In this document: positions 3,953 to 56,610 of the stretch, piece by piece
Layout: each line of letters opens with the position of its first letter
How positions within the stretch are numbered: position 1 is the first letter of the stretch
Assembly (NCBI GenBank): GCA_027923505.1
Contig: BROI01000007.1
Span: forward strand, 496,001-560,000
Reading direction: 5' to 3'
DNA length: 64,000 nt
Origin: Mayamaea pseudoterrestris
Lineage: Eukaryota
Notes under the pieces: generated by a model
Told to the model about the DNA's origin: nothing
Databases searched by the model: none
Seen by the model: only the letters and a program-made list of their open reading frames with translations
Program-made: the position numbers and the translations under genes

Positions 3953-4837
3953 CTATTCTCCTTGCGTCCGTTCTTCGTCCAGCAAGCCTTCTGGACTACT
4001 ATTCACACCAAAGTGGAAAATCGGGCCTTGCGCAATTTGCGACGGCGCATTAACCACGTCAAGCTCATCAATCGCTTCCACATTGTGATCCGCCCACAGC
4101 AACAGCTTGGAAACTTGATTCTTGTGAAGCAGACTCATGAATTCCTCCGCCACGGCATTGCATCCTTCGTTCCATAACCAGTTATTGTCCTTCATGGCGT
4201 GCAGACTCGTCTTGACCGTCTGCAATGCATCCCATTCATCTTGCCATCCCGCTGACGCGCTGGCCAATTGCTCAACTTGATCATCTGTTAGTCCCAAGAC
4301 GGCGCGAAGCTCCTGTTCGAGCGCTGCATCGTGACCCATGCGATGCAACACATATTGCTCCTGCATCATTTCCTCAAGCATGCCAATGTATTCCAATTGT
4401 TGCTCCAAAATGTCAGTGGCCGTTTGCTGACGCTCCGCCGTGCTCAACACTTGTTGGCCGCGATCCATGGAAAGCGCTTCCACCAAGGCCCGAGGATTGT
4501 CCTGGGTGCCCCACTCATGCACTTGCAGTTGCTCGAGCGTCTTTTCCAATATACCAACTTCTGTTTCATACGCGTCAACCTGAGTAAATTTGCATAGGTT
4601 GAAAAGACATGAGAGAGTGTGACGCTGAGCTACGTTAAAACAACATGCAAAGACTTTAAAGTCTAAACATCATGTAGTACGCACCAAATTCTTTTTGCGA
4701 AGCCGCCGCAACCGTGCACTCGCTCGGTTCCGCGCCAATCGCTTTTGCCGCTTCTCCTCCTCCTGCTTGGCGCCGTACGAAGTCATGTCCGGAAGGCTCA
4801 TGCTACGTTGCTGGGCGGGTTGCTGAAAGGGTATTAA

Positions 4838-12182: not shown

Positions 12183-13550
12183 CTACTGTATGTCTATTCT
12201 TCGATCCTTGTTTGTCTCATGGTAATTCGTCCAGGCTCCACTATCATTTGCGTAATAATCCATTGGATAGACTTGTCTCCACTGCTCCTCTCCCATGGCG
12301 ACGAAGAATTCGTATGGATTCAATACAGGCTTATGTGAAAGAAACTGACCCCAGTCGACCGACAATCTCGGACACGCCACTTGTACAAAGGCATCAATGC
12401 TGGGCAGCAACTTTAGCTTGGCCGGTGTAATTTCCGATACGAGCATAATCATGAATGATTTATTGCGCTGGCGAAGCACTTGTCGAATCTTTTGCAGAAT
12501 GGCTGGATTGCCTTGGCGTCCCAGCGTTCCCAATATAATGCCAAACTTGAGCGCACTAGCCGCCTTGTCGATCATGTCGCGTCGAACGTCATGCATGTCG
12601 GAATGCGCGTATGACTCGAGCGTCATGTGTTTACCGTATGGGTCGTAGCGAAAGAAGGCTTCGATGTGAGGATTGCTAATCATGGTGCTTTCCAAATGGA
12701 AGCGGCCATCGGCAACAAAGCAAACCAAACCGTCATCCAGTTTCGGCGATGTGCATCCCAACACTTCACCCGGCGATAGTGGCTTGACTTGCGGAATTTT
12801 CACAATGTAGTTTTTTGATTCAAGTAACTCTTGTGCGAGCGGTAGAGCATGTCGAAACTGGATCGTTCCGAGCAAATAAATGGTAGTCTTGCTTGGAGCT
12901 GAAATTGAACTTTCATTCGCACTCCTTCTCGCCTCTAGCGTCGCTTCAAGACACTCCACTAGATGCTGCGTATCAATCTGAATTTGCACAAAAACGTAGA
13001 GACAAGGTAGTACCGTATGCTGAATGGGAACCAAGCAGGAATGTCCATAGTGAACAAGTAGCTCCGCGCCGAGCGCTTGGGCCGTCAAATCATCGACGCA
13101 GCAGGCTCCGTAGCAAACGTCTCCAAGAATTACCACTTGTGTCAATGTAGGACAAAGGCGACGCAAGGCATCGCCGAGGACTGTTGCGTACATTAACAAT
13201 CCTTCTGGTAGCTGCAAGGCAATGCAGGAGGCTTGGAGCGTGTGAATCTTTTGCGCCGTTTTCACAATCTCCCAGCTGTAGGCATCAGGCAAGTGACTCT
13301 CTTGGAGAACCTTGGCGAGGAGAACTGGATCAATTGTGAAATTATCTTCTGACGATGCAACTGGACGGTGACGACGAATGATGCGAGTTGCAGGACGTTG
13401 CATTGTTGCTGTTGCTTCTTCTGCTGTTGCTTGTGATGTCACGCCCTGCACTTTGGCGTCGTTCGAGTCGTCAGTGATGTTCATTGAGGGCTGTTCTACC
13501 GTATCTGCATCCGCCTTCGATTGCTCTGCTACAGCATCAAAAGCCGGCAT
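12183..13550 (-). CDS. DPH1: Diphthamide biosynthesis protein 1
   Basis: ALQLPEGL, GDVCYGACCVDD, HYGHSCL, GEVLGCT, DGRFHLE, GTLGRQG, ACPRLSVDWG, YPMDYY. Confidence 0.95.
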   Translation of the reverse strand: MPAFDAVAEQSKADADTVEQPSMNITDDSNDAKVQGVTSQATAEEATATMQRPATRIIRRHRPVASSEDNFTIDPVLLAKVLQESHLPDAYSWEIVKTAQKIHTLQASCIALQLPEGLLMYATVLGDALRRLCPTLTQVVILGDVCYGACCVDDLTAQALGAELLVHYGHSCLVPIQHTVLPCLYVFVQIQIDTQHLVECLEATLEARRSANESSISAPSKTTIYLLGTIQFRHALPLAQELLESKNYIVKIPQVKPLSPGEVLGCTSPKLDDGLVCFVADGRFHLESTMISNPHIEAFFRYDPYGKHMTLESYAHSDMHDVRRDMIDKAASALKFGIILGTLGRQGNPAILQKIRQVLRQRNKSFMIMLVSEITPAKLKLLPSIDAFVQVACPRLSVDWGQFLSHKPVLNPYEFFVAMGEEQWRQVYPMDYYANDSGAWTNYHETNKDRRIDIQ

Positions 13551-13835
13551 TGTTGTGTTTTCATGCAATACTAAAACGGTGTAAAGGCAACTGCTGATGA
13601 TTCGCCATGGTGAGATGAAACCATTGCATTTCTTGTGGTTCGCAAGCCGTGTCACGCTTAAAGTATTAGCGGTACTCATTTTAGCGGTACTCATCGCGTG
13701 CGTTTCGCACTTGGTTCGTTCCATCGAACCTGCTTTGCTTCCACGGGTCCAAATCTTTGGCTGCTTTTATTCCATCGCCTGTCTCTGTCATTGCAGCAGT
13801 AAAGTCAAGTTACCGTACGTTTATCAGTTTATAGA

Positions 13836-14888: not shown

Positions 14889-15508
14889 TTGAAATAGTGC
14901 TTTGACTTGCAACGCAATTAAGCTTTGTTGTGTTCCAATTCCAAAATGACTTGAATAAATAAAATTTCTTCTACACCATGAATAAGTAATGTAGTGGTGC
15001 TGGCCTTTTGCTAGTAGTTTTGAAACTTGGTTTGCCCCCGCTTTTGATTCAGAGAGGGGAATTGGTAGTAGCAATTGGAAGTATGATGTACGTCGTAGAT
15101 GAAAGTGCCAAAGTGGAGAGCATCTATTATCTGATCATACTTACGAGAAAGTAGAGCAAAATCATATATTGTATTACATGCAGCGATAGTAATAACCATC
15201 AATGACTGTTTTACGTGCGCCTATCAGATACTGTCATTTAAATCCTCTCCGCAAACTCAAAGCGACCCTTTCCAAAGCTAATTATTAACCTTTGCCAGCG
15301 CTGGAACCACAAACTTGTACGGAACATTGGCAATCTTCACGGCTCGTACTGCAATCAGTGGACTGCTGTAGCCATTGTGCTGCTTGATGGGATAGCCACT
15401 GTCAATTTGGATTGGCTCATTTGTCTTCTCTTTCAAAAAGCAATAAGCCACGTCTCCGTCGGGTGCTTGATACTCAACTCATTCCACTTGACCTGCCATG
15501 AGTGTGTT

Positions 15509-15855
15509 CTCATCTGGTATGCCACAATGAGACACAGCACATTCAACAACTTGTTAGCAGTTCACCTCAACTGGCAGTCCAGTATGGCCTGCAGACCCCA
15601 GAATATTTATAACATAGATACATCTTATGCATTTGGACCAATAGTCTTGTCAGTTACTGTGTGGAACCAAAATTTGTGCAAAGAAAGGAATGTGCTAGCA
15701 GTGCACCATGCTTTGGCTACAAAATCATCAGCCTTGCCTGCTAAGCCATCCAACCCCTTTGTATGGTGTTTGTATGTTGACATTTTGAGCCAATGATGGG
15801 GAGACTATCTTCCCAATATCCAATCAGCTTGTCTGCCATGGTGAGCCTTGGCAGT
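15509..15855. repeat. Left-hand, degenerate copy of the 347-bp tandem repeat, interrupted by the retrotransposon
   Basis: Near-identical blocks to 22174-22490, e.g. cacctcaactggca, gcagaccccagaata, ctttggctacaaaatcatcagccttgcc, gatggggagactatcttcccaatatcc. Confidence 0.85.
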
Positions 15856-16166
15856 TGTAACTTGTAAATCAAATCGTTGCACCTTTCGCTTGTAGCTGTC
15901 CTTGGATGGCCAATCCAAGCTTGCAGTTGCTACAATACGAGAGACGAATAAATCGCTTTCTTAACTCTTCAAGCTTAGTAAGTCTGCTTGTTTCTACTCT
16001 ATATCGCACTAGTTTTAGCAATATACTCGTTGAATCGCTTCGAAGCCGTCGCTGCCACGCATCACGCGATCGTGAGGCTGTGGTGAGCCGCGAGTGCCGC
16101 TGTGTCACCCTATCGGACATTCGGTGTGACTTGCCCGATTTTCGCTGTTTTCGTTCGCATCCTGCA
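15856..16166 (-). repeat. 3' LTR (about 310 bp; TG...CA), preceded on the minus strand by polypurine tract GAGGGGAG (16168-16175)
   Basis: Minus strand reads GAGGGGAG-T-TGCAGG just after the pol stop. The plus-strand left end TGT is at 15856 (or 15863), where similarity to the host repeat stops. Confidence 0.75.
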
Positions 16167-16184
16167 ACTCCCCTCAAGTCATAC

Positions 16185-19100
16185 CTAATAGTTCGATTCC
16201 TTGAAGAGCAGGTTCTTTAAGTGCTTGCTTGCCGTAGCCCGCGGAAGAAACTTGGTAAGTACATCCGCCGGGTTTGTCGTTCCCATGATGTGGTTGAAAT
16301 TAATAATTCCCGCCGCAATCGCTTCGCGTACACGGTGAAATGCCAGTGCATTGTGTCGCTTCGTTAGACTAGAGTGCGGTAAGTTGCTGCTTTGCGTCAC
16401 CGACTTGTTGTCTCCAAACATCCATGAAGGTCCGTCGAGCGGAACTCCCAACATGCGTAGCGTGAAGCGGAGATCCATGATCTGCTCCGTGCTCACTCTC
16501 GCTGCTACAAACTCCGAGCCGTACGTCGCCGTCTCGACCGTCGCTTGGCGTTTCGAAAACCAATCGACGACTGTTCCATTCAACATGTGTAGCATGCCCA
16601 TCGCTGCCCGTCCCGTCGTGTAATCGTGGTACAGGTTTGCATCTTCAAACGTTGACATTCGCACCGCCTTGCCGCGCGGCGTGGGCATGTTCCACGGAAG
16701 CTCTTCGCAGATCTTGCCGTACACACTGTAATCCCAATCCATCTTGTCAACTGTCGCGTATCGCTCGTCCGTTGGAATCGAAACGTTGAATCGAATCGCT
16801 CCATCTGGGTATCGTCGTAAGTATCCGCAAATATGCTTCAACCGTTCCAAGTGCCCCGCTCGTGGCGCAGCTCGGAATCTCCCCATAGTCATGACAGCAC
16901 AGTGAATGTCGAATCGACATAAACTTACTGCCCATTGCAACGCACCAATGATCGATTGATACTTCGCAATTCCGTCGTCGTCAAGTTCCTTCGTTTCGTC
17001 GAGTTCCGGATGATCGCCGTCCCGCAGTGGACTTGTCTGCGGTCGCGGTTCCTCGCCGAACATTTCTTTGTAGTTCGCTAGTAGTCTTGTGACGTACTTC
17101 TTCGCTCCGAAGCAGAGTACGCCATCGTCGTCTCGCCAAACGTCTGCGCCCAAATGATATGCCAATGGACCGACGCCCTTCAACTTGTAGTTGTAGTTCT
17201 CAATTAAAAGATCCGTTAGTTCCTTCGGATTCTTCATCGCTATCGCTAAATCGTCGACATATACACAAACGTATTCGTAGTGCGTGCCCTTATCGCGCAT
17301 CCACACGTCCGATTCTGCGATACACGGCGTGAAGCCAATGTCGCGGAGCGTGTCTGCAAAGTGTTCGTGCCAGCGTGCGCCTGACGTGCGAAGACCGTAT
17401 AGTGCCTTCACGATCGTGAGCGTGTGACCCTCGAGCTCCCCGAACTCCGGACCTGCCACGATATAAACCTTCTCTTTCGTTTTCGCTTCCAAGTATGCGT
17501 TGCCGACGTCAGCTGCCCACAGTTCCAGACCGTTGAGTTCCGCTAACATCGCTACCATTCGTAGACTTCGCAATGACACAACGCCCGAGTAAACTGAATC
17601 CTTCGGCGGCTCTGTCATATGTCCTCCTGCGACGAGTCGTGCTTTCCGTCGCAAATCGTGCTTGACATCGAATATCATGTGCACGTTTATTCGTTTCCAT
17701 GGCGCCGGCATAACCTTACCGACTCCTTGATCTGCGAACGTGTCGTAATCATTTATCTGATTTAATTCCGTTCGAATCGCATCCGTCCACAGCGTGTTGC
17801 CGTTGATCTCGTCGAGAGCTTTCGCATCTTTATAATTGCGCGGCAACCTTACGCCGAATTTGTAGCGTACGCCGTTTGCTTTCGATTTTCGTTTCGCTGC
17901 TGTCACCATCTGTCGAAACTTCTTTCGCTTCCGAGTGTAATGTTCCAGCTGCTTCCATCCTGGCTTGTCGAGTAAGCCGTGCTTGAGTCCATACTCTGCG
18001 ATTGTTATCGGATCGTCCTTCTTCATGATCGCGAGAGGCTCCCACGTCGTCGTTCCGTCAGTCCATTCGACGAGAACGTTACTTGAACTTCCTTTGTATG
18101 TCGGATCGTTCGGTTTCAAATTAAGCTCGTGTCCGATTACCTTCGTGAATACCCACTGAGTCACCGGATCGTTTCGTATATCTTCGTCCATCTGTCGTTC
18201 GATTAAATCCGACAGTTCGTTGTAACTTATTAAGTCTTTCGCTGGCTCCTCTCCCATCTGGATCAGGAAACCTTTCGTCGTTTCGAGTAGCTCGTTATCG
18301 CGTACTTCGATATATTCGCATACAGTCGCTCGCATTTTCTGACCGTTTTCGTGTTCCCTTACGAACGTGCGTCCGAATTCGCATACAGTCGCTCGCATTT
18401 TCTGACCGTTTTCGTGTTCCCTTACGAACGTGCGTCCAATGAGTTCGCTTGGAGAGAACAGAGGGCATTTATTCCCTGATTCTTGCTCAGCCCTTCTGAA
18501 GAACTTCGCTGGTACGTTGGCGTGGTTCGCCATCGGAATCGTTTCGTCGTCGTTTCCTTCGTAGTTGTCGTGACTACTTTCTGTCGCATTCGTGCTATGG
18601 TAGCGTCCTGTCGTTTCAAAATTTCGCTCGCTTGCGCGTGTAGCTTCTTCAGAAATCTCCCCTCCAGACTCAGGGAAGGAAGGCAACTCTCGTGGTAACA
18701 AGTAGCTGCGCGAGACCACGTTGGAGCGCGGAATCGCCTGAAGCGTGTCGTCCGTCAGAACGAGAAAAGTCATGTGCGGACCGCTATTCTCTGCGATGCC
18801 CACGAATCGGCCGTTGCCAGATCGTACCGCCGAGGGAAAACTCCCCTGCGCCTCAAACGTGACCGGTTCCCACCACTTGAAATGTAACAAAGGCGAAATA
18901 TCCGGCAAATTTCCGAACGCAACTTCCGTTGGAGTGCGCCATCCCAGCGATTTCGTCGCGAGGACGTTCAGAATCATGATTACGAATTTAATCAGCAAAA
19001 TCCAGCAATGCCCTGGCGAACCCGAATCTCGTTGGAGGTTCTCCATCATTGGCTTAATGTGCGACGTGTGACGTTCGCATGGATTTTGTTCTGGGTGACC

Positions 19101-19780
19101 CGGTTCTGTGGTCACTTGAGGAATATTGTACATCCGACAGAGATCCCTCACAGCCTTGCCAGTCTCCGATTTGGCATTGTCGCTGAGCAGTCCGTTAGGA
19201 GCGCCCACTTCGCGGATAAAATCCTCTAACGCATTGGACATTTCACTTTCCGACTTCATCGGGTAGCCGCGCGTGTAAAAACTTTCTCGTCCAACAAAGA
19301 GCTGCATCTTAGTAGCTCCCCCATGCCCGAGAATTCCATCATCCAAAGCTGGCGTGTCAGAGTGTATCGTGTCCGTGGCGAATAGTTCGCGCAACCGCTG
19401 AACGTTCGCGGCCGGAAATCGTGACTTCGTGAGGTGTCGAAATGGTAATCGCGGATGTTCGCTGAGATGATACCATGCTTCCGTGTGACGTAAAGTCTGT
19501 TGAACTCGCTCAGTCGGGACCCATCCGAGGTACGGCCGAAGAGCATTATAGTCCGGTTCCTTGCTGCGTAGCTTCCGCAAATTAACGCGTGAAAACTGAG
19601 CGTGTCGCACGCACCGATTGATCAGTACGTCAAGTTCGTCGCCAGTGCGTGTCGGCGTGTGACGATTGCGGTGCGTGATACCGTCATCGTCGAATCGTTC
19701 GTCGAAAGATCCATAATCGCGATCGCGTTCGCCGAAATCGCCGATGCGCGTGCGTTCGACATCGTAAACAGTCGGGTCCG
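16185..19780 (-). CDS. pol: Copia Pol: integrase, chromo-like domain, reverse transcriptase, RNase H
   Basis: Integrase FATD..SDNAK..NPCER; RT KARLVAGG, DVGNAYL, KALYGL, YVDD; RNase H ETATYGSEF, GDNKS, NPADVLTK. The frame stays open upstream of 19610 to about 19780 (DPTVYD...). Confidence 0.93.
18314..18437. repeat. Tandem duplication inside pol, 63-bp period, in frame
   Basis: attcgcatacagtcgctcgcattttctgaccgttttcgtgttcccttacgaacgtgcgtcc at 18314 and 18377; peptide GRTFVREHENGQKMRATVCE occurs twice. Confidence 0.95.
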
Positions 19781-20220
19781 CACGCCGTCCGACGTCATGA
19801 TGACAGTCGGATACTTATCCAAATCATCGAACGTGGGTTTCGTCACGTCCAAGTACACCAGGCCATCGCGAATTGCCAATGGCAAAACGTAGCCTCCAAT
19901 GTTCGTCGTAATTCGTTGCGTTCCGCCAAACATGGTCGGAATATCGTCGACACGATGTCCCATTGCGCGCAATTGATTCGGGCAATGAATCGTCGGTCCG
20001 TCTCGCTTTAAAGCATACTGGTGACACAAAAGCAGAATGGTTTCCCCACTAAGGGTCTTTGCTAGTCCAGCTGCTGTGCCAATCTTGAGAGCTGGGACAA
20101 TATGATCGTCAATACCAGTCACATCCACCTCGGCGTTCGTTTCCGAAACGACGAGCATGTCTCCTCCGCATAAGCCTCCGTTCGCGCCGCTGTCGATGAG
20201 CGCCTGTTGATCCGCTCGTA
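19780..20220 (-). CDS. Copia aspartic protease segment, frameshifted relative to gag and pol
   Basis: ALIDSGANGGLCGGDM active-site motif, then VDVTGI...LPLAIRDGLVYL..PT..D..YPTVIMTSD. Confidence 0.85.
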
Positions 20221-21780
20221 GTGTGCGCGATTGACGCGCATACGACGATGCATGTTGAAGCTGAATGTACCTCGTCCGGTGTTATCAGTCGTCAACGATC
20301 CTGTCACTTGCTGAGTTGTAGTACTCGCATTATTCGCTTGCAGAACCGATCGTGCAGCCGTTTGGACTGACATTCCACTATTGCCTGGCTGGATATTAAT
20401 CGTGCCAGGAACGCTTGCGTGATCGTTCGCTACAGATTCCGTCGCGTGACGCTCTTGATGCGCCGCGTTGACTTGCGTCTGCGTCGTAGCCGTGCCTCGT
20501 TGGTTGCGCGGTCGCCATCCGTTTTCGGGTGTCTTGGGCGCCGTCGCACGCTTGTCCTTCAACTGCTTCCGCTGATCGAACTTCATCTCCAACCAGACTT
20601 CATCCTTCACGCTCGCGTGAGGTTTCTTCATGATCGCTGCAAATCGTTCCGCCGATAAGCCGCTTGGAGTCGCGCCGCCATTGCCGCCGCCGCCTCCTTT
20701 CGTTCCACTAGACTGCGCTTGATTGATTGTGCGCTTAGTCTTCGTCGTCGATGGATGTTTCTTGTCATACTTGATGCAGCACTCTTCTAAGTGCGCGTAC
20801 AACTGCGCGAAATTGTCTTCCGAGTCGTGTTGCCCCATGTGTTTCTTGATGGCAATCATTCCGTCAAAACCTGCTAGCGAGGCGCTGAATCCAGTGTGCT
20901 CAGAGAAAGCGTCGCGTAGCATGTCGTATCGTTGTAAACCTGTCAGAGCTTCTGCGTCCATTTCGAGCAGCCAGATGACTTTCTTGTAGAACAGTGCAAG
21001 AAATTCGATCGTCGGCCTTGACCACTTCTCGGTCAGCCGCATTCCCTGCAGTTCCGTTCGCGCGCGTTCCTTCTCGATGTGAGCAGTAGCGCCTTCTTCG
21101 TATCGCGTTCGCAATCGTTGGTAGACTTCGCGTCCGTCCATCGTCTTCTTGAACTGCTGTACTGCGAGTGATGCAGACGGAGTTCGACAGTGCGTGAGAA
21201 AGATTCTGTATACAAACACATTCTTCTTTGCATACGCCTTCTGTTCTTTCGGTCCCTTTTCCTTCGGGTCATAATCGTCGTCAAAGACTTCGTGGAAGTC
21301 GTGCAATGTAGCGATGACTTTCAACTCGGAAATCCACTGTTTCCACGAGGAATCCAGCTTCATTTCTTTACAATCCTTCGCCGAGAACTTGATAGACTTC
21401 GTAAATTGGTCTGAATACATCTCGTCGTCTTCGCCGTCACCGAGGTCCAGTACGGATGTCGGTGACTGCTTCGCTGTCCCACGTCCACGCTCGTCGGTGG
21501 CACCTTGTTGAACCTTGTGCCTCGTTTTAGCGTGGAACCTTGTACGGCATTCGCTTCTTCCGGCTCGTCCGCAATGTTGCAGCTGTGGACTGCTGAGCGC
21601 ATTGTGCTGCTTGATGCGACTAGCCAACTGCCATTGGATCGGCGTCCTTGTCTTGATGTCCACTCTTTCACATGCAATACGCCACGTCTCGTGTCGTCGT
21701 AGGTGCTTGAAGTACTCAACTCGTTCCTGCGTGACCTTGTCGCCATCGTCAGTCGTACGTTGACTCATCTGGTACGCCAC
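20220..21780 (-). CDS. gag: Copia Gag (5' end unreliable)
   Basis: Long ORF upstream of the protease with W..W...L...A..H...EVFD.DY.P and DGREVY..L...Y gag-like motifs. Confidence 0.8.
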
Positions 21781-22137
21781 AATGAGAACACAGCCATTCG
21801 AACAATGTTCTTGGTAGCAGTCACCTCAACTGGCAGTCACGTATGTCCTGCAGACCCCAGAATCTTTATAACATATATACAATGATACAATGATCCAATA
21901 GTCTTGTCACTTGTGGGAATGCAGCAATGTGCCATGAGGCCCCGTCACATTCAACAAAAGCTTGAATGTGCTAGCAGTGTAACCATGCTTTGGCTACAAA
22001 ATCATCAGCCTTGCCAGCATAAGCCTGCTGATCAACTCTTTGTATGGTAGTTTGCATAATTTGAAGCGCCAGATGTGGGAGACTATGCTGTGTCACCCTA
22101 TCGGACATTCGGTCTTGTCTGCCATGGTGATCCTGCA

Positions 22138-22720
22138 AGCAGATCCAATAACTAGTTGGATCTGCTAGCGGTGCACCTCAACTGGCACACAGACTGCCAG
22201 AATGGCCTGCAGACCCCAGAATATAAGAAACATATATACATATGATACAATTGGACCAATAGTCTTGTCACTTGTGGTGTGGAATGCAGCAATGTGCCAT
22301 GAGGCACTGCACATTCAACAAAAGGTTGAATGTGCTAGCAGTGTACCATGCTTTGGCTACAAAATCATCAGCCTTGCCAGCTAAGCCATCCAACCCCTTT
22401 GTATGGTGTTTGTTGACATTTTGAGCCAATGATGGGGAGACTATCTTCCCAATATCCTTCAGCCATTCTGCCATGGTGAGACTTGGCAGATCCAATAACT
22501 TGTTGGATCTGCTAGCGGTGCACCTCAACTGGCACACACACTGCCAGAATGTCCTGCAGACCCCAGAATATTAGAAACATAAATACATATGATACAACTG
22601 GACCAATAGTCTTGTCACTTGTGGTGTGGAACACAGCATTATGCCATGAGACCCCGCACATTCAACAAAAGGTTGAATGTGCTAGCAGTGCACTATGCTT
22701 TGGCTACAGGATCATCAATG
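22138..22720. repeat. CpG-depleted 347-bp tandem repeat made of two ~173-bp hairpin-bearing halves
   Basis: cacctcaactggca at 22174 and 22521 (period 347; also 21822). 27-nt hairpins at 22139, 22309, 22486 and 22656. Confidence 0.9.
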
Positions 22721-23154
22721 TGCTAGCATTACTCCATTTGGCCATAGTTATCATCAGCCTTATTGCATCTGGCTGCTTCTAGAAAGTCCTTTTCTTGCTG
22801 TGAGGATGTTTTACCATGAATTGGAATGCCTTGGAGGTTCATCGTATTGTTGCCTGTGGTTTGGGAATGAGGTCATCAGAGTTCTCCCTCTGGTAATTCC
22901 ATACTTCCCTGCTAGGTTTTTTTGTCAAAGTGAGTCTGCTAGGCTGCAGTATAATATTATATGCTGATCATTGCACGTCGCACTGTATATACACCTGTAC
23001 GACGTACGTACGTCGTACGAGTAGAATCAAATACCGTAGCGACACGATCTACCGTAGACGCGACAGCCGCGTGTGACAAAAAACGACCATGGCGCAAAGA
23101 AGCTTTCGAGCAAATATCTCTCCAGCTACAAACTCTTTTAAAGCTTCTACAACC

Positions 23155-24059
23155 ATGCCAAAAACTTCTTCTAAATCGAATTCCCGTCCACGAGAGGAGA
23201 AACGACTTCGTCGCTATCGGCTGGCGTGTCCCGGCAAGCTCTACGACAGAATTCATCGAGGAGTCACTCAACGACTCTACTTGATTGAACGTACCGAGGA
23301 AGGTCCTGATGAAATGGTCTTTTCGGTGCTTGGTTCCACTGGAAATGTTTATCAAGTGACTCTGACGCATATTCCAACTTGCACTTGTCCTGACTTTATG
23401 AGAAAGCAAGGTGAGTGCGACGAGCGATGCATTATGCATTGTTGCTAGAAGAAGTAATATGACTTTTGTGATGACTTCTACATGGTAACACTTGTCTGAC
23501 AACGTTCCACTTGTCATGAGCAGATGTTTGCAAACACATGATATTCGTCTTGACCAAGGTGGTTGGTCTCGGCGTGGAAAATCGACTTGTCTATCAGCGA
23601 GCGTTTGTTACGACCGAGCTGGAGGAATTGTTTGACATGGCCAAGCGTCGAAGAGTTGGAGGAAGCGTGCTTGCAAATCAGCGCGTCCGCGAATCATTTA
23701 AAAATGGAGCAAGTTCGTGTGGAGGAGCTGTTTGCGGCAAGGACGATAGCGCTTCCGGGGAACCTGTTCCTCGCTCCCTTTTGGTTGATTGTCCCATATG
23801 CTTTGATCGTTTGCAAACCTTGGAGGAATGCACGACATGCCTTGTCTGCAACGCTGGATTCCATAAAGATTGCATTCGTCGCTGGACTGGGCAACAACAA
23901 CGAAGCGGCTCTCCTTCTTGTCCAAACTGTCGATCCGCGTGGCCGATCGAGGGCAAGTCGTCGCAGGTCAGTGACGAAGGCTATGTCAACCTTGGTTCCT
24001 TGCAAGGACAGTCTCCAGTTCGGGATGCGAGTACATATAGACGTCGTCGATATGGTTAA
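23155..24059 (+). CDS. SWIM zinc finger plus RING protein, 2 exons (intron 23411-23523)
   Basis: VLGSTGNVY..CTCPDF..DVCKH (SWIM, completed across the splice); RING CPIC..C..C..FH..CI..W..CPNCRSAW. Confidence 0.9.
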
Positions 24060-33931: not shown

Positions 33932-35480
33932 ATGGAGAAACCGCTTGACTGTGAATCCATGTCGCATCCTATTGTTCGCACTCGCTTGGTGGGACGCAAT
34001 CTTCCTTTCAATCAATCCAAGAATGTAATTCAGGTCATTCATAACTACGGAATGAAAATCATTCGCCTGACGATACATGATTCCTTTCATGTTTTGCTTC
34101 GACTTTCGGCGCTTCAAACGATTCTCTTGATGGTAACACTATTGACAATGAATGTGCTGTTCTTTGCCAGTCTCTACCTTGCGGTTGACCGCAACTACGA
34201 TCCCAAGGGTGTTTGCAATCTGGGAGTAAGTGGAAAGCCGCTAGAGTTTCATACTGCTTTTGCCATTTCGGTTCAAACGAGCGTCAGTGGCGGATATTGG
34301 TGAGTCCTTTCTTGGTGCCTCTATGAACGATCAATCATGGCAATAATCTAAAGATACCAACGCTCTGCAATGACAGCTTCCCGATAGGCAGCAACGCATT
34401 ATTTGAGGATTGCCCGGCCCTGCAATCCGTCTTTTACTTTCAAATTGGCTTTTCTTTACTGACTAACGGTAAGCGATGCATACGACAGTGAGCTCTGCGC
34501 TGAGCTGCTAGCTACTGTTGTTTATTTGTGCTTTGTAAATGTCGATTGGCCGGCTTTTTACGTGGACATGCGCCATTATTTTGTCCATCGAGTCAGTCTA
34601 ACTTTTGCTCCGTCGACTCGCAGCTGTTTGGATCGCTCTCATGATTGCTGCACTTGGCGACAACTCCCAACGAGCCGTACAAGTCCTGTTTTCGGAGAAA
34701 GCTATTGTTTCTGTGCACGGTAGCCAAACGAGGTTTCAAGTACGAATATTTGACGTTAATGCAAAACATCCTGTTGTCAATGCACACGTTCGTCTATACG
34801 CCATGATGAAGGACAAACCTGGCCCTCGTTCTCTGCGACTGGTGCAGCCCGATGATGAACTAGGGGGCGGCATGTTTCTTTCGCTACCTCAAGTCATTAG
34901 CCATCATATTGATTTGTACAGCATCTTGCATCCTCCTAAGGCAGACAATCCTTTACTCGAAAACAAGAATGGCTTGGATATGCGCGAAGCAGATTCCTCC
35001 ATTGGAAAGCGCGGAGAAGTCTCTTGTCCTGTCTGCAGCGAAAATTTTGGTACACATAATCAATGGGTCAGACATGTGAAGTATATGCAAATTGCCGAAA
35101 GTGTCGGCAAGACTCCTCGTCCAGGTGCTCATGGAAAGATTCGAGAATTGGAGCTTGACTTGGATCGGTACAAGCCAACCTCCAATCTTGAGGTTTTACA
35201 CTCTCACTTTGATCAAGAGATTAGCGAAGTTGTCTGTGTGGTGGAAGGCACTGATCCGTTGACGTCGGGAGCCTTTTGTGCAATGCAAAGCTACCAGTCA
35301 TCCGACATTGTTTGGGACCATGGAAGTGCCTTTCATCCCTGCATTAGCGTCGACTCTGACATTTATCGAGTTGACATTGATCGTTTCCATGATATTACAA
35401 AAAAGACATCTGGTGGCAGGCAGCACCAAGTATCAACAAGAGTACATGATTCATTCTTTGCTGTTGGCGGGACATTCTAG
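33932..35480 (+). CDS. Inward-rectifier (Kir-like) channel paralog 1, 3 exons (introns 34300-34376 and 34469-34623)
   Basis: D.FHVLL slide helix, TM1, AFAISVQT pore helix, Cys pair, TM2, VLFSEKAIV, FQVRI, HHID..S.L, EVVCVVEG.D..TS, SY...DI.W..F.P, D.DRFH. Confidence 0.85.
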
Positions 35481-35956
35481 CTTTTCTAACAATAAAAGTT
35501 GGGCGCAGAACATCGTATACTTGGTAGATGCTCTGGTAGTTATGATAGAGGAGCAGCTAACGTTTTGCATGGACTCTAGTATGTCAGAGTTGAATCTGAG
35601 ACAAGTTCTCTCCAATCACATACCGGTAGCAGCTGTAAGAGGCACCAGCCATGCATTCCATCTAGTAAACCAACCTAAATAATGATGCTGGCAGCATTCT
35701 AGTGTCTGTCTATTGGTCGTGGACACAGCCCTCTCGTGTGGGTCCAAAAGAGTGGTTAGTAAACTGTATTGCGCTGCGACACACAACATTCGACTCCTCG
35801 CGATGATGAGAGCTCGAGTTGATGTGAGCTGTGCGTGCTTCTGCTTTGCCATATAGGAGGCTGGGGATGTAGCGCGACCTTCTTACGGACTTTAGTTGCG
35901 GACGGGCAGATAGCGAGACGCAGCGAATAGAGAAGACAGTTAATTACTCGTAGAAA

Positions 35957-37393
35957 ATGTCTACAAGGATCATGACGAGAACGAAAAGCAAGTCGTCGCT
36001 CCAAGATCCTCCTCGCATAGTTTTGCGGAATCTCCCCTTTAATCAGTCAAGAAATATTCTTCAGGTGGAGCACGATGAAGGTTTTCGAATGTCGCGTTTA
36101 TTGCGGCACGATCTGTTTCACGTGTTGCTTGGTCTGCCGACCGTCACGACAATGGTGTTGCTTGCATGCCTCTGGACGGCAAATTGTTTGTTCTTTGCTG
36201 CCATCATTTACGCAGTCGACCCCGACGAGGCTGGAACGGACTGCAGACTTCGATCATACGACAAACCGATTCTTTATGCGACGGCTTTTGCTCAGTCAAT
36301 TCAGACAGCGTCTGGCGTTGGATACACGTAAGTGCCATCTGGCTCACCTTCGCTGTGTATTCAATGTATCGGTATGAAGATCTCACAAGTATATATTCAA
36401 ACCTTGCTTCATTTCAGCCTTCCCGTCGCTGTTAATTCCTACTATGCGCATTGTCCCAAGCTTCAAATAGCTACTTATTTTGAAATGTCAGTCTCCATGC
36501 TGATCGTTGCCTTTATCATTTCCATTCTCATTGCCCGCATGAAGAACGCGGCTCGCCGCGCAGTGCAACTCGTCTTTGCCAAAAAAGCCGTTGTCTCCGT
36601 TGTGAATGGACAGACTCGCCTCCAAATTCGAGCCTTTGACATTAATGCCCGGCACCCCATCGTTGGTGCTCATGTGCGGCTGTATGCCGTCACCAAGGAT
36701 CGACCAGTACCTCGCCGCCTTCGGCTTCTACAGCCAAACGATGTCACGGGCGGTCATCTTTTTCTATCGCTTCCTCTAGTTGTGAGCCACCATATTGATC
36801 TATACAGCATTTTGCATTCACCGCGACCAGATAATCCTCTCTTGAGACACAGCCATGGAATGGATTTGAGACAGGCTGACTCAGCCACTTGCAATCGGGA
36901 CGACGTTGTCTGCCGCATTTGCAGCGAGACGTTTGGTACGCACGAAATATGGGTCCGACATGTGCAGTACAAAAAGATTGCCGAAAGCGTGGCCGGTGTT
37001 TCGACCAAGAGGAGTCACCTTGGCGTTGGACAAGTTGAGCTTGATTTAAACAGCTACAAGCCCACTACGAACTTAAGCATTTTGAAGACTCATTTTGAGC
37101 AAGAAATCAGTGAAATCATTTGCGTGGTGGAAGGCATTGATCCATTGACATCGGGTGCGTTTAGCGCCATGCACACTTATCGAGCGTCAGATATTGTCTG
37201 GGAAGAGCATGCTGCGTTCCACCCTTGCATCAGTGCTGATTCTGGTACCTATAAAGTTGATTTGGACCGCTTTCATGAGATTGTCAACGTGCCCTCTGCT
37301 AGTCGCCAGCATCAAGTTTCGACGCGAGTGCACGACTCATTCTTTTTCAATGAGAACCGAGAGTTGAAAGCAGTTTCCATGTTGCCTCAGTAA
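35957..37393 (+). CDS. Inward-rectifier (Kir-like) channel paralog 2, 2 exons (intron 36328-36417)
   Basis: Same Kir motifs; spliced pore reads QTASGVGYTLP. Confidence 0.87.
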
Positions 37394-37655
37394 CTAACAT
37401 GGCTCGTCTCTTGTTTCATTTAATTTTTGACCTGAAATGTTGTGTATTATGTCGGCATTCGCATTATATGAATACGATGCTCCTTAAAAGCAGGCGTTCG
37501 TTTTGTTAGGAAGTATAACCATAGCTAAAAGATACACACTGCGACACTTGTTCGGAGTGTTGATTCGCGACGATGGCGCGCCAATCGACCTCGAGGCGTT
37601 TTGGCCGTCCCTCGTCAAAACCATGGGAATCTGTCGCCACAAGCATTAAGTTTCG

Positions 37656-39068
37656 ATGATTCCAATGAGATGGAGAGCGAATGACATACAGACTGATAAG
37701 GTGGATGATCTGCCTCGTCTTGTACGGCGAAATCTTCCCTTCAATCAGTCTGACAATGCGATCCAAGTTCTTCACAACCAAGGAATCAAGATACTGCGGC
37801 TGACGTCCTACGATTATTTCCACGTTTTGCTTCGCTATTCCTTGGCACAGATTTTAATCTTGCTTATTTTTCTGTGGACAATCAACATTTTGTTTTTCGC
37901 TGGCGTTTACGTTTCCATCGATCCCCATGAAAGCGGAAGCTGTGGACTCGGATTGAATGGGCAGCCCATCACTTGGGCGACAGCGTGGGGATTTTCTCTA
38001 CAAACCGCCACAACTGTAGGTTACACATTGCCTAATTCTGTTAATGGATATTTTGAGAATTGTCCATCGCTACAAACTGCAGTCTTTTTCCAAACGACCT
38101 TTTCGCTATTGTTCAACGCCTGCCTCATCGCCATTGTCACTGGACGCATTGCCAACAGCAGTCTCCGAGCAATCCAAGTGATCTTTTCTGATAAAGCCAT
38201 CGTATCCGTCATGGCTGGCCAAGTGCGATTGCAGATTCGAGTCTTTGACGCCGACGCTCGCCATCCAGTGGTCGAAGCGCATGTTCGATTGTACGCCGTC
38301 ATGAAGGACAAGCCAGTGCCACGTCCATTGCGTCTCATTCAACCGAACGATGATCAAGGTGCCAAAATGTTACTCTCTCTGCCACAAGTGATTTGCCATC
38401 ACATTGACTTGTACAGCTTGCTGCATCCACCCAAGCCTGATAATCCTACGAACGCTGTTCGAAATGGATTGGATTTGCGCCAAGCCGATTCCTTGACATG
38501 TACTCGGGAGGAAGTTGTATGTCCAGTCTGCAGTGAAACATATGGAACGTTTGAGCGCTGGGTTCGGCACGTTCAGTTTAATCAAATTGTGGAACGTGAG
38601 GATGAAATTCCAGTCAAGGGATCTCACCTTGAAGTTAAACCAGAGGAGCTCAATTTGAACAGGTACAAGCCGAGCAGCAATTTGCATGCCATGCAAACTC
38701 ATTTTGAACAAGAAGTGAGCGAGGTTATTTGCGTTGTGGAAGGGATTGATCCATTGACTTCGGGCTCTTTTGCTGCAGTTCACAGCTACCGAAAGGAAGA
38801 CATTTTCTGGCAAAATGGCGCAGTCTTCCATCCATGTATCAGTGCCGAAGCAGACAGCTACACGGTCGACCTTGATCGGTTTCACGAAATCATAACAAAA
38901 TCTGGTGGCAGGCAGCAGCAACTTTCTATCCGCCCTCACGACATGTTCTTTGCAATTGAACGGCGTCCCAACCTTAGCAGCCTGCTTCGCCAGGGCCACG
39001 CAATGACGAGAAACGTTCCTTCAATCCGTCGCCCTTTTGCACCGAACATGATGAGCCCCAGGCGGTAG
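37656..39068 (+). CDS. Inward-rectifier (Kir-like) channel paralog 3, intronless over the channel region
   Basis: Same Kir motifs; pore QTATTVGYTLP. Start codon uncertain. Confidence 0.9.
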   Translation: MIPMRWRANDIQTDKVDDLPRLVRRNLPFNQSDNAIQVLHNQGIKILRLTSYDYFHVLLRYSLAQILILLIFLWTINILFFAGVYVSIDPHESGSCGLGLNGQPITWATAWGFSLQTATTVGYTLPNSVNGYFENCPSLQTAVFFQTTFSLLFNACLIAIVTGRIANSSLRAIQVIFSDKAIVSVMAGQVRLQIRVFDADARHPVVEAHVRLYAVMKDKPVPRPLRLIQPNDDQGAKMLLSLPQVICHHIDLYSLLHPPKPDNPTNAVRNGLDLRQADSLTCTREEVVCPVCSETYGTFERWVRHVQFNQIVEREDEIPVKGSHLEVKPEELNLNRYKPSSNLHAMQTHFEQEVSEVICVVEGIDPLTSGSFAAVHSYRKEDIFWQNGAVFHPCISAEADSYTVDLDRFHEIITKSGGRQQQLSIRPHDMFFAIERRPNLSSLLRQGHAMTRNVPSIRRPFAPNMMSPRR

Positions 39069-46898: not shown

Positions 46899-49800
46899 TT
46901 AGACGGCAATTGGGCCACTTGGGTCTTTGGGATTCTCTTTTCCTCGGTTCACTTGCATTCGCAGATGGCTCAACGTGTCAAGGCAGCCGCTGTCGACACT
47001 ACTGTTGTCAACAACTGATGGCACATGTGGACTAACAGGGCCAGCTGAATAAAGATACGGACCTCCATCCCACTCTTCAGATAACGTGTAGGTGCTTGGA
47101 CAGCTCGAAAGATCGGTCGACTTGGTGTGGGTCTGTAGGAGACCGTCAGTTTGCTCCTTTGAAGGCGCATGTTTCTGTTGATCGCCATTGTTGCGACCAA
47201 ACAAACCGGTAATAAGCTTTGTACCTTTAAATATCTTCCTCTTACCTGGACTGGCTAAATTTTCGTCGTAATCGTCAGTAAAAGCTTGCTCCGTTCGTCC
47301 GCCAAAACTGACGCGTCGATTGTTGACGCTAGGGTGCTTCGAGGCGCCAGACTGTGTTTGCTGAGACATCATCATCTGTGGCATGACCATGTTATTCGGC
47401 GTTTGCAGTGGAGGGCTGCCAGGTAGCACTGGAAGAGACATGGAATGATAAGGTGCCTGCATTGGTATCTGGGTCCAAGGAGGGTAGTGTTGCGACTGAC
47501 CTGGCGGCAACTGGTAGGCGTACATTGGCATTGTCGACGGATATGACGGCAGCTGCATCGAATGGTATTGCTGCATGACTGGCGGTGGGCTTCCTTGCAG
47601 TGGCATTACCTTATGAGATGCTTCGGCCACCTGATCTTGCACTTCATTTGTCTCCTCTTTCCCTGGTGCGCTCGTAAGCATTGCCAAGGCCGATTGAAAC
47701 AGACTAGGCTGCTCATCTTTGATTGCAGTTTCTGCTTTCTCCTCTTTCTTCACCTCTGGCTCTTTAATAATTGCTGGCAAGCTAGACTTATAAATTTGAT
47801 TGTTCACTTCGGATGCATCTTCGGCTTTTGCAGATTCAAACGTCAGTCCAGTGCGCAATCGCTCCCAGGCCTGCTTTGTGCGCTCCTCCCACGTAATTTC
47901 CTTTTCATCCACAGTTGGCTGCTCTGCATCGGCAACCTTAACTGTAGCATCATGGCTGGCTTGCTGAAGCGCCAAGGCTTGCTGTCGGTGCTGCGTCTGA
48001 ATGTGATGCTGCTGCTGCTGTTGCTGCTGCATAGCTAGCTGCTGTTGCTGCTGCATCTGATAGAAAAAAAGCTGCTCATTCGTTGGCGGCGGGTTTGGAT
48101 ACGGATATGACCCACCGTTCCAACTCTGGGGCATTGGCAAAGCTCTTACCGGACCCGCTTGGGCGCGAGCTCCAACATCAGTCCTGTCAAGGCTTCGAGT
48201 TCTTTGCTGTGGATTTTTCGATCTTGAAGGCGATCGAGAGCGTGATTGAGATCGCGATAACTCGGGCTTTTTCGATCTTGAAGGCGATCGAGAGCGTGAT
48301 TGAGATCGCGACAACACGGGCGATCTGGATCGAGAACGTCGGAAAAATGGAAGGGAGAACGCAGATTTCTGTCGTCGTCCTGGTGCCTTTGCCTTTGCGC
48401 TACCAGTGAAGGTACGGCTCGCCTGTTGCTTTTGCACTCTTTCATAATACTGGCGCTGAAGCTGCGCCTGCTGCTGCGCTTGAAGTCGACGATCAACGGC
48501 CGGACTGCGCTGCATATGTATCTGAGGGTTATGCACCGAAGGCCCGTCACTAAAATGATTTACCTGAGGGATCGCTTCCCCAGGCGTACGGTACTGCATG
48601 CTGCAGCAACTGCCTTCGTCTTGCTGTGGTCTCGACGTTGCTTGCGGAAGAAGGTACTGCGCAGGTGTAGATTGCTGACTCGGTGTTCTTTTATAACCGG
48701 CTTCTGGAAGAGCGTCCAGGGATGTGCGAATACGTTCGCGAAGCCTTATATCACTTATATCATCCTGTCGAGCTTGTCCACGCGTTTGGCCCGTTGAAGG
48801 CCGGCTTGCTGCATTTGTTGGTGCTGCAATACGGATTGGATCCTGCATTAAGCTTTTTTCTTCCTCGACCGTGTTCATGAGCCCGCATGCACGCGTCTGT
48901 GGCATCTTGTCGAAATCCTGACGACTTGCCGTTATAAAACTTTGTCGTTCTAACATATCGTCGTAACTGTAGTAGCCTGGTCGCGACATCATTGGGTGAA
49001 TAGCGCCATTTTTAAGTTCCCGCGAAGCCGCGCCACTGCCGAACCCACTTAAGTGCGGCGGTTCCCAGTATGAAGTGTCAATAAATCCCTCTCGATGAGC
49101 GGTGATGTAACTCTGACGTTCCATCTGATCGCTGTTCGCAGACAGCGTGCCATCCATGCCATGGCGGTGGGCCATGATCATGCTATCGCGTTCCATTGCA
49201 TCATCAGGATTTCGGATCAGAGGATGCGTTGGATGCATATAGTTAAAGTTCTCCATTGCCCTCCGCGTTAAAGACCCTTGACGCCCGTTCAAGACCACAA
49301 CTCGCAGCGGATCATCTTGCTCAGCATGTCGACTAGGAGAGTTTGACCGAGCCCGACTTGGTGACTTTGAACGGCTGCCTCTGTTCTTACTACCACCCAT
49401 CGAAGGTAGACTCCAGCGATTTGTCTTATTCACTTCCTTATCGTCCGCGCTTCGGCTTCTCGTGCGATTAATACCCGGTGACGGATCACGTATCTTGTTT
49501 CTGGTAGCAGGAGAAGCAGGGGCATTTGGCATGATTGGCTGGCGATAGTTCCGCGTGACGCATTCATCCGGCATGGCTCGCCGCATAATCTTTTGCTGTC
49601 GGACAGGAATGATCGGAAGACTTTCGTCCCAATCATCAGCCGCACGGATGCTGCGACTCATCTGGTTTGGCTTGCCTTCAGCGCGTATCATTTGGATCGG
49701 ATCCAATGCTTCGTCCTCGTCAAACGAAACCGAAGCGCTTGTACGACGCCCCGGAGACGGAGAGCGCGACTTAGATGCCGTACGCCCACGGCTTGCTGTT

Positions 49801-54924: not shown

Positions 54925-56610
54925 TTATCGATCGCCATAATTTGATGGAATGCCCTGCTGGCCTAGTATCGCTGCCTGGACTTCAGATTCGCCATGCTTG
55001 ACCTGTAAGCCTTTATATTCTCGTTGCTTGAGAAATTGTGCAGCAACGCTTTTATATGCGGTAATTTGGCCTTGTCCGGGTAGCGCTTGTAAATTAATCA
55101 TTTCATCTCCTGTCGATGGCGCTGACTCAAACTTGCCTGTCGCAACATTAAAATAAGGCTCGTCCCTGTCATCATCACGCGACGAGCCCCCAGCGCTGTC
55201 AAGCTTCAAATAATCGTCAACGATTGACAAACAGTCTTCGACACGCATAGAATATGGCTGATCGCCCCAGTTGACAATACCCAATGACATGAGCAGCTCA
55301 AATGGCGTCAAGACAATCGTCGAGAAATCACTCTCATCATCCAACAATGCATGCTCCGGACATGCCAGCAGGACGTAACATTCAATTTCAGCAAAGTTGG
55401 CCAACTTGGCTGGATTAATCTTCCCAACGCAAACCGTGTAAGAGCTTCTCCCACACGCATCAATCACACGCTGCAAACGAGACACGGCCTTTTGCATGCG
55501 AGGATCGGCTAGACTCGCGACGAGCAGACCAAATACAGATACTTGTCGCGCCTTGTTGACCAAGTAGAAACGGCGATTCAATTTGCGGGCAAATGATGGA
55601 TCCAGCGATGTCTCTAGTTGTTTGCGGCTGGGATGGTACGACCAAAACTGCAGTGGCTGAGGAGTACTGGATAACAATTGCATCGCGATGTTAAGAAACT
55701 GTCGACTGTTGGGATCTCCAATGTACAAGACTGTAAATGTGCTCAAGTCCAGTCGAGGTGGAAGCTCCAAGCCTCCCACAAGTAGTACGTCATGATTACA
55801 GTGATCAATTTCACTATCATGCTTTCCCGACATAAGTGGCTCACTCATTGGTTGTTCTTCAATCTTTTCATTTATGTTACTACACGCAGCTCCAGATGAC
55901 GGAGGTGACGTCGAACAACATTCCGCTCTGGAGCAAGCGTCACCCGTCGCTGCTACATGTAGATGCTCTGGTAATTTTGCGTCTCCGGCAATCACCAGCA
56001 GATCTCCTTGCTCCCCTAATCTCGTCTGTAAGTCTTCCATGACATGATGATACGAAGTGTCGTAAAGAAGCAATAATCTTCGAGGAGTGTTCATTTCGGC
56101 TATGAAAGACGTCACCTGCTCCACGCAGTCCTGGACATCAATCTCATAGTTTCCAAAGCAGTAAATTATCTTAGTTTCATCACTTGCTGAGCTTGTCTTT
56201 GTGATTGCCTGGCGACTCAAGCAGGCATGTCCAAAATGAACTAAAAGGCTAGCCTGCAAATGCTGGGCAGCAATGGTATCGGGGCAGCATGGCGCAAAAG
56301 TTGTATCTCCCAAGACAAAGACGAGCGAGTCTGGCAGCGCGTCTTGCAGAAACTGACACACATCGGGTGCGTCCTGCAGTAGTTCATCGGGAAACTGAAG
56401 AGCAATGGATGTGTAGCTCTCTTTGCTTTTGTTTGAAGCCGAGGGTGCAAGACTTGCCACGAGCGAGTCGAGTTGATAAAAATCCAGTAGCGAAGCCTCG
56501 CCTCGTGGACATTCTGGAAGATCATCAGTCTCGCCCGCTTGTTCGCGAATCACACGAGACCCATCATCAAAAATGAGCTGCGGAGCCGATGATCGATTGG
56601 ACGAAGACAT
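54925..56610 (-). CDS. DPH2: Diphthamide biosynthesis protein 2
   Basis: IALQFPDELL, LGDT...CC.D..AAQH, HFGHACLS, RRFYLV.KAR, VGKINPAKLANF, ACPE, R.YKGL, G..GI...Y. Confidence 0.95.
   Translation of the reverse strand: MSSSNRSSAPQLIFDDGSRVIREQAGETDDLPECPRGEASLLDFYQLDSLVASLAPSASNKSKESYTSIALQFPDELLQDAPDVCQFLQDALPDSLVFVLGDTTFAPCCPDTIAAQHLQASLLVHFGHACLSRQAITKTSSASDETKIIYCFGNYEIDVQDCVEQVTSFIAEMNTPRRLLLLYDTSYHHVMEDLQTRLGEQGDLLVIAGDAKLPEHLHVAATGDACSRAECCSTSPPSSGAACSNINEKIEEQPMSEPLMSGKHDSEIDHCNHDVLLVGGLELPPRLDLSTFTVLYIGDPNSRQFLNIAMQLLSSTPQPLQFWSYHPSRKQLETSLDPSFARKLNRRFYLVNKARQVSVFGLLVASLADPRMQKAVSRLQRVIDACGRSSYTVCVGKINPAKLANFAEIECYVLLACPEHALLDDESDFSTIVLTPFELLMSLGIVNWGDQPYSMRVEDCLSIVDDYLKLDSAGGSSRDDDRDEPYFNVATGKFESAPSTGDEMINLQALPGQGQITAYKSVAAQFLKQREYKGLQVKHGESEVQAAILGQQGIPSNYGDR

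Follow-up and report, generated by a model that had tools for sequence, protein, structure and literature searches.

The sequence considered here is a 64,000-nucleotide window of the diatom Mayamaea pseudoterrestris (contig BROI01000007.1 of assembly GCA_027923505.1, forward-strand positions 496,001 to 560,000), within which a 347-bp tandem repeat carries a regular series of short hairpins of two alternating types, A and B. The repeat lies directly upstream, on the minus (sense) strand, of a gag-like open reading frame (ORF) that is followed by a pol ORF of Ty1/copia type. The hairpins are probably border modules of the long terminal repeat (LTR)/leader region of Ty1/copia-type retrotransposons and no independent array of RNA genes. 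The repeat and its hairpins comprise the following features:

21843..22717, 347-bp tandem repeat, 2.5 copies with 85% matches (TRF)
21945..21971, hairpin A1, with one uncompensated terminal mismatch (pattern search and pair count)
22139..22165, hairpin B1, with an 11-bp stem if 22138/22166 is counted; the proposed insertion begins at its minus-strand 3' edge
22309..22335, hairpin A2, 11-bp stem and 5-nt loop
22486..22512, hairpin B2, 10-bp stem and 7-nt loop; an 11th pair would be T.G (plus strand) or C.A (minus strand)
22656..22682, hairpin A3, of type A, 11-bp stem and 5-nt loop
22469..22534, 66-nt core around hairpin B, delimited by loose contig ends at both borders

A search of the window with a degenerate hairpin pattern, tolerating up to three mismatches, returned five sites, at 21945 (one mismatch), 22139, 22309, 22486 and 22656, where 0.03 are expected by chance and none of 100 shuffles reached five. 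From 21945 onward the sites are 194, 170, 177 and 170 nt apart. When the entire window was scanned for perfect stems (10 bp or longer, loops of 3-9 nt), seven registers were detected, every one of them within the hairpins at 22139, 22309, 22486 and 22656, as compared to a mean of 0.7 and a maximum of five registers in 50 Markov simulations. Together with TRF, these searches confirm the claim from which the analysis started, made by a model from the letters alone (the sequence-only reading), that a 347-bp tandem repeat contains four perfect inverted repeats of 27 nt, belonging to two types in alternation, and they reproduce the spacing of 170, 177 and 170 nt that it gave. The two degenerate copies that it added fared differently: the one at 21945 is a hairpin with a single mismatch, and near 15690 only the 3' arm and the tail remain. 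Its description of all stems as 10 bp with 7-nt loops fits B2 but neither the A stems, which have 11 bp and 5-nt loops, nor B1, which has 11 bp. The tail TAGCRGTGYAC that it placed after every hairpin is found at four of the five and has one extra base at 21945, and the word TGCCATG is indeed upstream of all five.

The folding energy of 81-nt windows around the hairpins is between -25.9 and -39.8 kcal/mol, with z from -2.6 to -6.5, on both strands. In the plus-strand sequence, every stem end is overlapped by a CTAG word. Short palindromes that lack a loop lie next to the hairpins, namely GCTAGC at all five, CCATGG at both B cores, and GTGCAC at three of the five and again next to the decayed low-coordinate copy. 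A second small hairpin (6-bp stem CTGGCA/TGCCAG, 7-nt loop) is present in the two older A-halves, at 22529-22547 and 22182-22200; it has been lost from copy 1 of the repeat and from the copy at 15570-15590, and most contigs have other sequence in its place.

When the ten stem pairs were compared over the five copies, seven proved invariant, two were changed on both sides (C:G to G:C and U:A to C:G) and one was broken in a single copy, A1 at 21945, leaving 49 of 50 cells paired. The resulting stem-pair score was reached by 4 of 500 column shuffles. Self-complementarity survives both double changes, as the sequence-only reading had it. Neither single-side nor G.U intermediates occur among the five copies and, because every double change divides type A from type B, there is effectively one evolutionary contrast. 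The broader claim that structure rather than sequence was conserved holds for the pairing, which is kept, but it has to be set against this one A/B split and against the conservation of much flanking sequence: the A and B cores are alike over approximately 75 nt, from before the tail to past the CATGGCA word (minus strand), well beyond the stem. The spacers between the A and B halves are unalike, as had been stated, with no A-half/B-half match in a BLAST comparison of the unit with the window. Pairing that extends into the flanks (TGCCA/TGGCA and others) does appear in folds of single copies; however, these outer helices are not common to A and B, and 4 of the 11 outer pairs are broken in two of the five copies. 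An inversion of the spacer, considered for the similarity of the loop of A to that of inverted B, was rejected because the likeness, judged by eye, is not above chance.

Copies 2 and 3 of the repeat (22139-22717) are 93% alike, and copy 1 (21812-22086) is 82% like copy 2, with a period offset of 359-365 nt instead of 347. The order of unit and then gag is present twice in the window, in two diverged copies, which are 73.6% identical over 622 nt (15311-15848 and 21536-22134) and 79.5% identical between 15552-15865 and 22163-22503. Both copies share the same succession of one unit, a degenerate core, the words CTCA-TTG-TGGCRTACCAG and an ATG. The features of the carrying element, all on the minus strand, are as follows:

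15855..22138, proposed inserted Ty1/copia-type element of 6.3 kb, starting with TTGCAGGAT, with CTGC at 22139-22142 and 15851-15854
21783..22138, 5' non-coding region of the inserted element, consisting of an LTR-start homologue, then one repeat unit with hairpin A1, then a degenerate core
20119..21768, gag-like ORF, 549 aa from ATG
16185..19814, pol ORF, 1209 aa
16168..16175, polypurine-tract-like GAGGGGAG, 9 nt past the pol stop and abutting TTGCAGGAT
15855..16167, candidate for the 3' LTR (313 bp), with very high depth in public contigs
15311..15850, remainder of the older repeat beyond the interruption, made up of one unit in which both hairpins have decayed, CTCA-TTG-TGGCATACCAG-ATG and a gag-like fragment full of stops, in this order

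The pol ORF contains an RVT_2 domain (PF07727) in residues 703-914 (4.1e-26; 92.5 bits against a cut-off of 31.6). N-terminal to this reverse transcriptase (RT), residues 181-241 give a weak rve match (E 3e-4; 21.5 bits, below the Pfam cut-off of 32.6 bits). Integrase ahead of RT is the Ty1/copia order, with the reservation that the rve match is itself weak. The gag-like ORF matches no Pfam family, and the only relative found for it in the databases, a hypothetical protein of Mayamaea pseudoterrestris, is 61% identical over 42% of the query. An overlapping frame of 219 aa is a third ORF on the minus strand. The 5' non-coding region includes a TATAAA at 21865-21870 and runs into CTCA-TTG-TGGCGTACCAG (21786->21769), which is followed by the gag ATG. 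As a separate observation, pol harbours a perfect 63-bp tandem duplication at 18314-18437 (TRF: 2.0 copies, 100%).

TTGCAGGAT stands directly behind both GAGGGGAG (at 16167-16159) and hairpin B1 (at 22138-22130), an exact 27-mer recurs behind both (16125-16099 and 22113-22087), and CTGC lies directly outside each end. When the outer flanks are joined, they resemble the intact B2 core, with 13 of the first 14 letters past the hairpin matching before the two sequences drift apart. The continuation of the older repeat begins approximately 300 bp beyond GAGGGGAG and resembles 21536-22503 at 74-80%. From the CTGC repeat, the shared TTGCAGGAT and 27-mer and the flanks that rebuild an intact core, we read 22138->15855 as a putative younger element inserted at the hairpin edge of an older relative. 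In our reading, the older, decayed element would have carried about three 347-bp units before gag, and the 2.5-copy array would be partly a product of nesting. Copy 1 of the repeat would then belong to the inserted element as its own 5' region, which agrees with its offset period. The last ~30 nt of the 3' LTR candidate align with the left half of a B core only, comprising the tail, the 5' arm and the loop but no 3' arm. An alternative LTR border, between CA and TG in the word found 9-14 nt past each hairpin and followed by TGG (compare the gag-proximal CTCA-TTG-TGG), was ranked lower, because the CTGC-bounded insertion places this word in the target, outside the LTR.

Four public sequencing runs (X1, X2, X3 and X6) were compared with the window as contigs at least 80% alike, whose depth is not copy number. 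The unique flank 22928-23400 is found without a single difference in both X1 and X2, which indicates that the organism is present in these two runs. In X1, depth is 81-167 over the flanks, 8,340-43,311 over the element interior, 62,936 in the 3' LTR at 16016, 89,518 (in 13 contigs) in the hairpin A loop at 22323 and about 4,050-4,378 in the B-half spacer at 22379/22401. The mean depth of the bin 22262-22548 is 134,726, so that, by arithmetic, the B core should be several-fold deeper still. The cores are approximately 1000 times deeper than the flanks and the spacers approximately 20 times shallower than the cores; in order, the cores far exceed the spacers and equal or exceed the LTR, which in turn is deeper than the interior. 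Broadly the same order holds in X2 and X3, but in X3 the LTR is deeper than hairpin A. Contigs like the element are hundreds-fold above flank depth in X1, X2 and X3. In X6, the element interior reaches ~1000-2400 and 21975-22835 only 0-0.66, yet missing contig cover there says nothing either way.

Loose contig ends accumulate at 22534 (29 contigs in X1, 18 in X2, 26 in X3) and at 22469 (16 contigs in X3), and these departures delimit the conserved 66-nt module around hairpin B, beyond which the majority of contig copies have other flanking sequence on either side. Contig joints that skip 349 nt or return 289 nt represent variants in unit number elsewhere. The combination of deep cores that keep their sequence with flanks that change suggests either constraint or very recent spread. 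The sole hairpin variant listed is in a loop, A>T at 22323 (88,832 of 89,518 depth in X1), and none of the 40 contig differences listed falls in a stem; as 283 more differences lie outside those 40, stem variants may still exist in the contigs. Compared to the abundant family of these contigs, the window copy has small indels at 19744-19785 and 20202-20203 (for example, two bases lost after 20202), and such indels are probably the reason why gag, the 219-aa frame and pol stand in three different frames. Contigs of X2 and X6 skip exactly 63 nt in pol, which means that the 63-bp duplication is missing from the abundant family.

Conserved LTR ends of the form TGTTRNR...YNYAACA, as well as stems between LTR ends and adjacent sequence, have been described (PMC3601003). 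On the sense strand, the 3' arm of hairpin A plus two loop bases gives TGTTGAA and the 5' arm of B2 plus two loop bases gives TCCAACA, and the hairpin arms thus appear to resemble this consensus. The minus-strand unit 22667->22501 starts with TGTTGAA and ends with TCCAACA, with a TGG word 6 nt further on. A terminal-repeat retrotransposon in miniature would have short LTRs with TG..CA ends and, in a short internal part, both a primer-binding site and a polypurine tract; of these, the unit shows the ends and the TGG word, and no purine tract ahead of the next unit. This likeness, the half-core at the end of the younger 3' LTR and the anatomy of the insertion form the basis of the LTR-border reading, in which the palindromes are most likely cis-acting element ends. 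On the sense strand, the 5' arm of each palindrome would close one LTR-like unit, and the 3' arm would open the leader or the following unit. The palindrome could consist of two LTR ends that a single integrase recognises, or it could form a stem between U5 and the leader, either in RNA or in strong-stop DNA. The compensated differences between A and B would reflect co-evolution of the two arms, since two ends under one integrase, like the two strands of a U5-leader stem, would be expected to co-vary. Unequal exchange or LTR-LTR joining could then have led to tandem reiteration and to the 170/177-nt spacing. Palindromes formed where two LTRs join are already known in connection with retroviral integrases (PMC1180852, PMC1905944). 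The interpretation given in the sequence-only reading is partly supported, but that reading overlooked the minus-strand context, in which the repeat is the non-coding LTR/leader region ahead of the genes of Ty1/copia-type retrotransposons.

A bolder version, which we consider decidedly unlikely, is that the 10-11-bp stem between the LTR end and the outside sequence functions as a replication element in a copia family of diatoms, under selection in some 1000 copies or more. The stem might serve as a fold-back for the priming or positioning of RT, comparable to the self-priming of Tf1-type elements mentioned in PMC3601003, or as a chromosomal LTR-LTR junction that integrase can recut, which would let mini-LTR units of 167-347 bp multiply as a non-autonomous parasite. 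If the cis-acting reading is true, the locus offers a concrete, mutable element for studying copia-type replication in diatoms, in which copia-type elements are reportedly the dominant, stress-activated transposons (PMC2806351); otherwise, it is ordinary repeat anatomy. With the palindromes read as LTR borders, the apparent covarying RNA array becomes a retrotransposon end structure, and it carries the caution that paralogous palindromes within repeats can mimic RNA covariation.

Several observations weigh against the LTR-border reading. The covariation comes down to a single A/B split, and, whichever strand is read, a full fit to the LTR consensus is seen in just one arm per hairpin. The inserted element lacks a pair of long terminal repeats that are nearly identical: its candidates, 22138->21806 and 16167->15855, match over the first ~68 nt only, the remainder scores 88 against 79 +/- 7 for shuffles, and the best repeat between the two sides of the element is 74-80% identical. 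With the LTR pair unmatched, a mosaic or recombinant origin has to be assumed for the younger element. At 21756, contigs of the abundant family depart from the window sequence. The CTGC direct repeat has 4 bp, where copia target duplications usually have 5 bp, and may have arisen by chance. The word TGGCRTACCAG that precedes the gag ATG in both copies resembles a primer-binding site (PBS), but it has no tRNA counterpart within the window, which contains no tRNA. No polypurine tract (PPT) is found ahead of the hairpins within the array, including after the minus-strand unit 22667->22501. The decayed copy shows its heaviest damage in the hairpins, with the neighbouring blocks intact.

Relatives are a further difficulty. 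A metagenome scan based on pol detected three loci (L001, L002 and L003), of which only L002 is close (75% identical in pol). It shares the PPT and the LTR start with the window element, but it contains no short-loop inverted repeats in the 680 nt after pol, and its tail shows no significant similarity to gag or to the unit. The hairpin module therefore appears to be lineage-specific. L003 has two short palindromes only, and L001 ends inside pol. Between positions 1640 and 2310 of L002, the PPT and LTR start are followed by a run of GAC codons, which resembles the sequence by which contigs of the abundant family go on beyond 21756.

Among the alternatives, the most probable, though less likely than the LTR-border reading, is that the palindromes have no function in a retrotransposon-derived repeat. 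Their arms would have been kept or restored by template switching during DNA replication, with each double change made in one step, and their copy number would be due to amplification of the element. Template switching reportedly creates and maintains hairpins and homogenises the arms of inverted repeats (PMC8794818, PMC8604942). The missing intermediates and the loop-less palindromes that adjoin the hairpins (GTGCAC, GCTAGC and CCATGG) favour this explanation, as do the restriction of the double changes, at two of ten pairs, to the sole A/B contrast and the fact that in the decayed copy the hairpins were deleted first. It does not readily account for cores that are far deeper than the spacers and keep their sequence while their flanks change, nor for the position of the one listed hairpin A variant, which is in the loop, with the stems free of variants among the 40 listed differences. 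LTR enhancers are often tandemly reiterated, and the palindromes could also be sites for a dimeric DNA-binding protein, that is, enhancer-like modules in the U3 of an LTR that were reiterated in tandem. Read along the sense strand, hairpin A is followed after ~45 nt by an invariant block with an inverted CCAAT word (GACAAGACTATTGG, in four of four units) and after ~75 nt by a TATA-like box, which has the canonical form TATAAA in the two gag-proximal units only (21870-21865 and 15611-15606), and short loop-less palindromes flank the hairpins. However, hairpin B would fall downstream of the putative start, and the promoter reading follows general rules; we consider this second alternative unlikely.

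The identities offered by the sequence-only reading, namely a structured-RNA array, recognition sites of an HUH/rolling-circle element and a satellite, all lack support. An array of processed structured RNAs (small RNAs or ribozyme-type units cut from a transcript of the repeat) would fit stems that are stable on both strands and a 7-nt word that occurs in every B-half (15731, 22008, 22371 and 22757) and which we take to equal the conserved hammerhead box. Nevertheless, Rfam 15, which includes the hammerhead and other small ribozymes, gave no matches at E<=1 over 15000-23400. Eight Rfam matches at E 0.62-9.1, hairpin-like noise with no ribozyme among them, reach at most 20.2 bits against gathering scores of 36-70, the best at E<=10 having 20.2 bits against a gathering score of 70. 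In addition, helices beyond the hairpin are not common to A and B, and stems of 10-11 bp are short for Dicer-type processing, so we regard this origin as very improbable. Much the same holds for a nucleosome-length higher-order satellite, an A/B dimer merely next to a transposon. The 170/177-nt alternation of two monomer types, the very deep cores and the contig joints that imply unit-number variants elsewhere are what such a satellite would show. Against it, the unit is joined twice to gag-like sequence, its start is common with the PPT-adjacent LTR, the spacers are some 20 times shallower than the cores, and in place of long homogeneous head-to-tail arrays there are 2.5 units at 85%, with a Der1-like gene on one side, a RING-finger gene on the other and genes densely spaced throughout the window. 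An HUH/rolling-circle (Helitron-like) element, for which the hairpins would be single-strand recognition sites, is harder still to credit. Its hallmarks would be the hairpin followed by a conserved tail and the plus-strand CTAG over the stem ends, and Helentron-carried tandem repeats do exist in oysters (PMC7492417). However, no Rep, helicase or transposase family was found among the ORFs of 200 aa or more that were scanned in the window, which number 29 of 35 (the other six are overlapping alternative-frame ORFs outside the scan), RT and a putative integrase are the only mobile-element proteins, and the hairpin pattern, even with its covarying positions left free, had no matches in metagenome contigs and none in viral contigs. 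Least credible of all is a decayed coding repeat with incidental palindromes. Its minus-strand frame is stop-free over 100 aa (22570-22268), yet it matches no Pfam family and has no homologue at near lengths among 5.8 billion proteins (one candidate had words in common, and none scored). Moreover, copies of the unit differ by indels of 1, 4 and 7 nt, none a multiple of three, which break the frame, and stops occur in the other frames and copies.

Elsewhere the window is densely packed with eukaryotic genes, among them those for EMP70, Raptor, condensin and MGDG synthase. At 22997-23018, between the repeat and the start of a gene for a protein with a SWIM-like domain and a RING finger (zf-RING_2, 1.8e-8, in 23520-24059), stands a GTAC-rich palindrome of 22 bp that is perfect and has no loop. 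Three tandem ORFs at 34602-39068 each encode the C-terminal domain of inward-rectifier K+ channels (IRK_C, about 5e-13 each). Two genes with diphthamide-synthesis domains, at 12183-13766 (1.7e-99) and 54925-56676 (7.7e-63), are 41 kb apart and probably represent the usual pair of paralogues. A minus-strand ORF of 1306 aa that matches no Pfam family contains a 54-bp tandem duplication at 48214-48321 (2.0 copies, 96%).

Among known systems, the nearest are the CoDi groups of diatom Ty1/copia elements (PMC2806351), which likewise have an RVT_2-type RT, with the integrase ahead of it as the weak rve match suggests for the element here. The length of the element proposed here (~6.3 kb) is inside the range of 5.2-8.1 kb given for CoDi elements, and the LTR candidates (313-356 bp) are inside the 153-844 bp given for their LTRs. 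CoDi LTR pairs are 94-100% identical, whereas the candidates here match at their starts only, and neither hairpins nor palindromes are mentioned by those words in the main text of that paper. LTR-LTR circle junctions and the short inverted repeats of LTRs (PMC3601003, PMC1180852, PMC1905944) are similar to the hairpins in that consensus-like arms face each other across a few bases and co-vary. The hairpins are, unlike such junctions, chromosomal and reiterated, with the second type in the middle of a 347-bp unit and a full consensus fit on one arm only. Retroviral U5-IR and U5-leader stems, as well as the stem that exposes the PPT in Sire (PMC3601003), provide another parallel, an inverted repeat between the LTR end and outside sequence near the priming site, and palindromes at the 5' end of Ty1 serve RNA dimerisation (PMC6844567). 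In contrast to those stems, the loops here have 5-7 nt and contain, on the sense strand, no PBS and no purine tract. Alpha-satellite consists of dimeric higher-order repeats with monomers of about 171 nt in two alternating types; the repeat of the window differs from it in forming no long array, in its gene-rich setting and in its physical link to gag and pol. Tandem repeats within LTR elements can seed satellites, and the described cases are reportedly plant Ty3/gypsy elements. The locus resembles the cases in PMC7004042 in having a short non-coding array and a repeat that is far more abundant than the coding part, and it is set apart from them by a copia-type element, a diatom host and a palindromic core as the conserved part.

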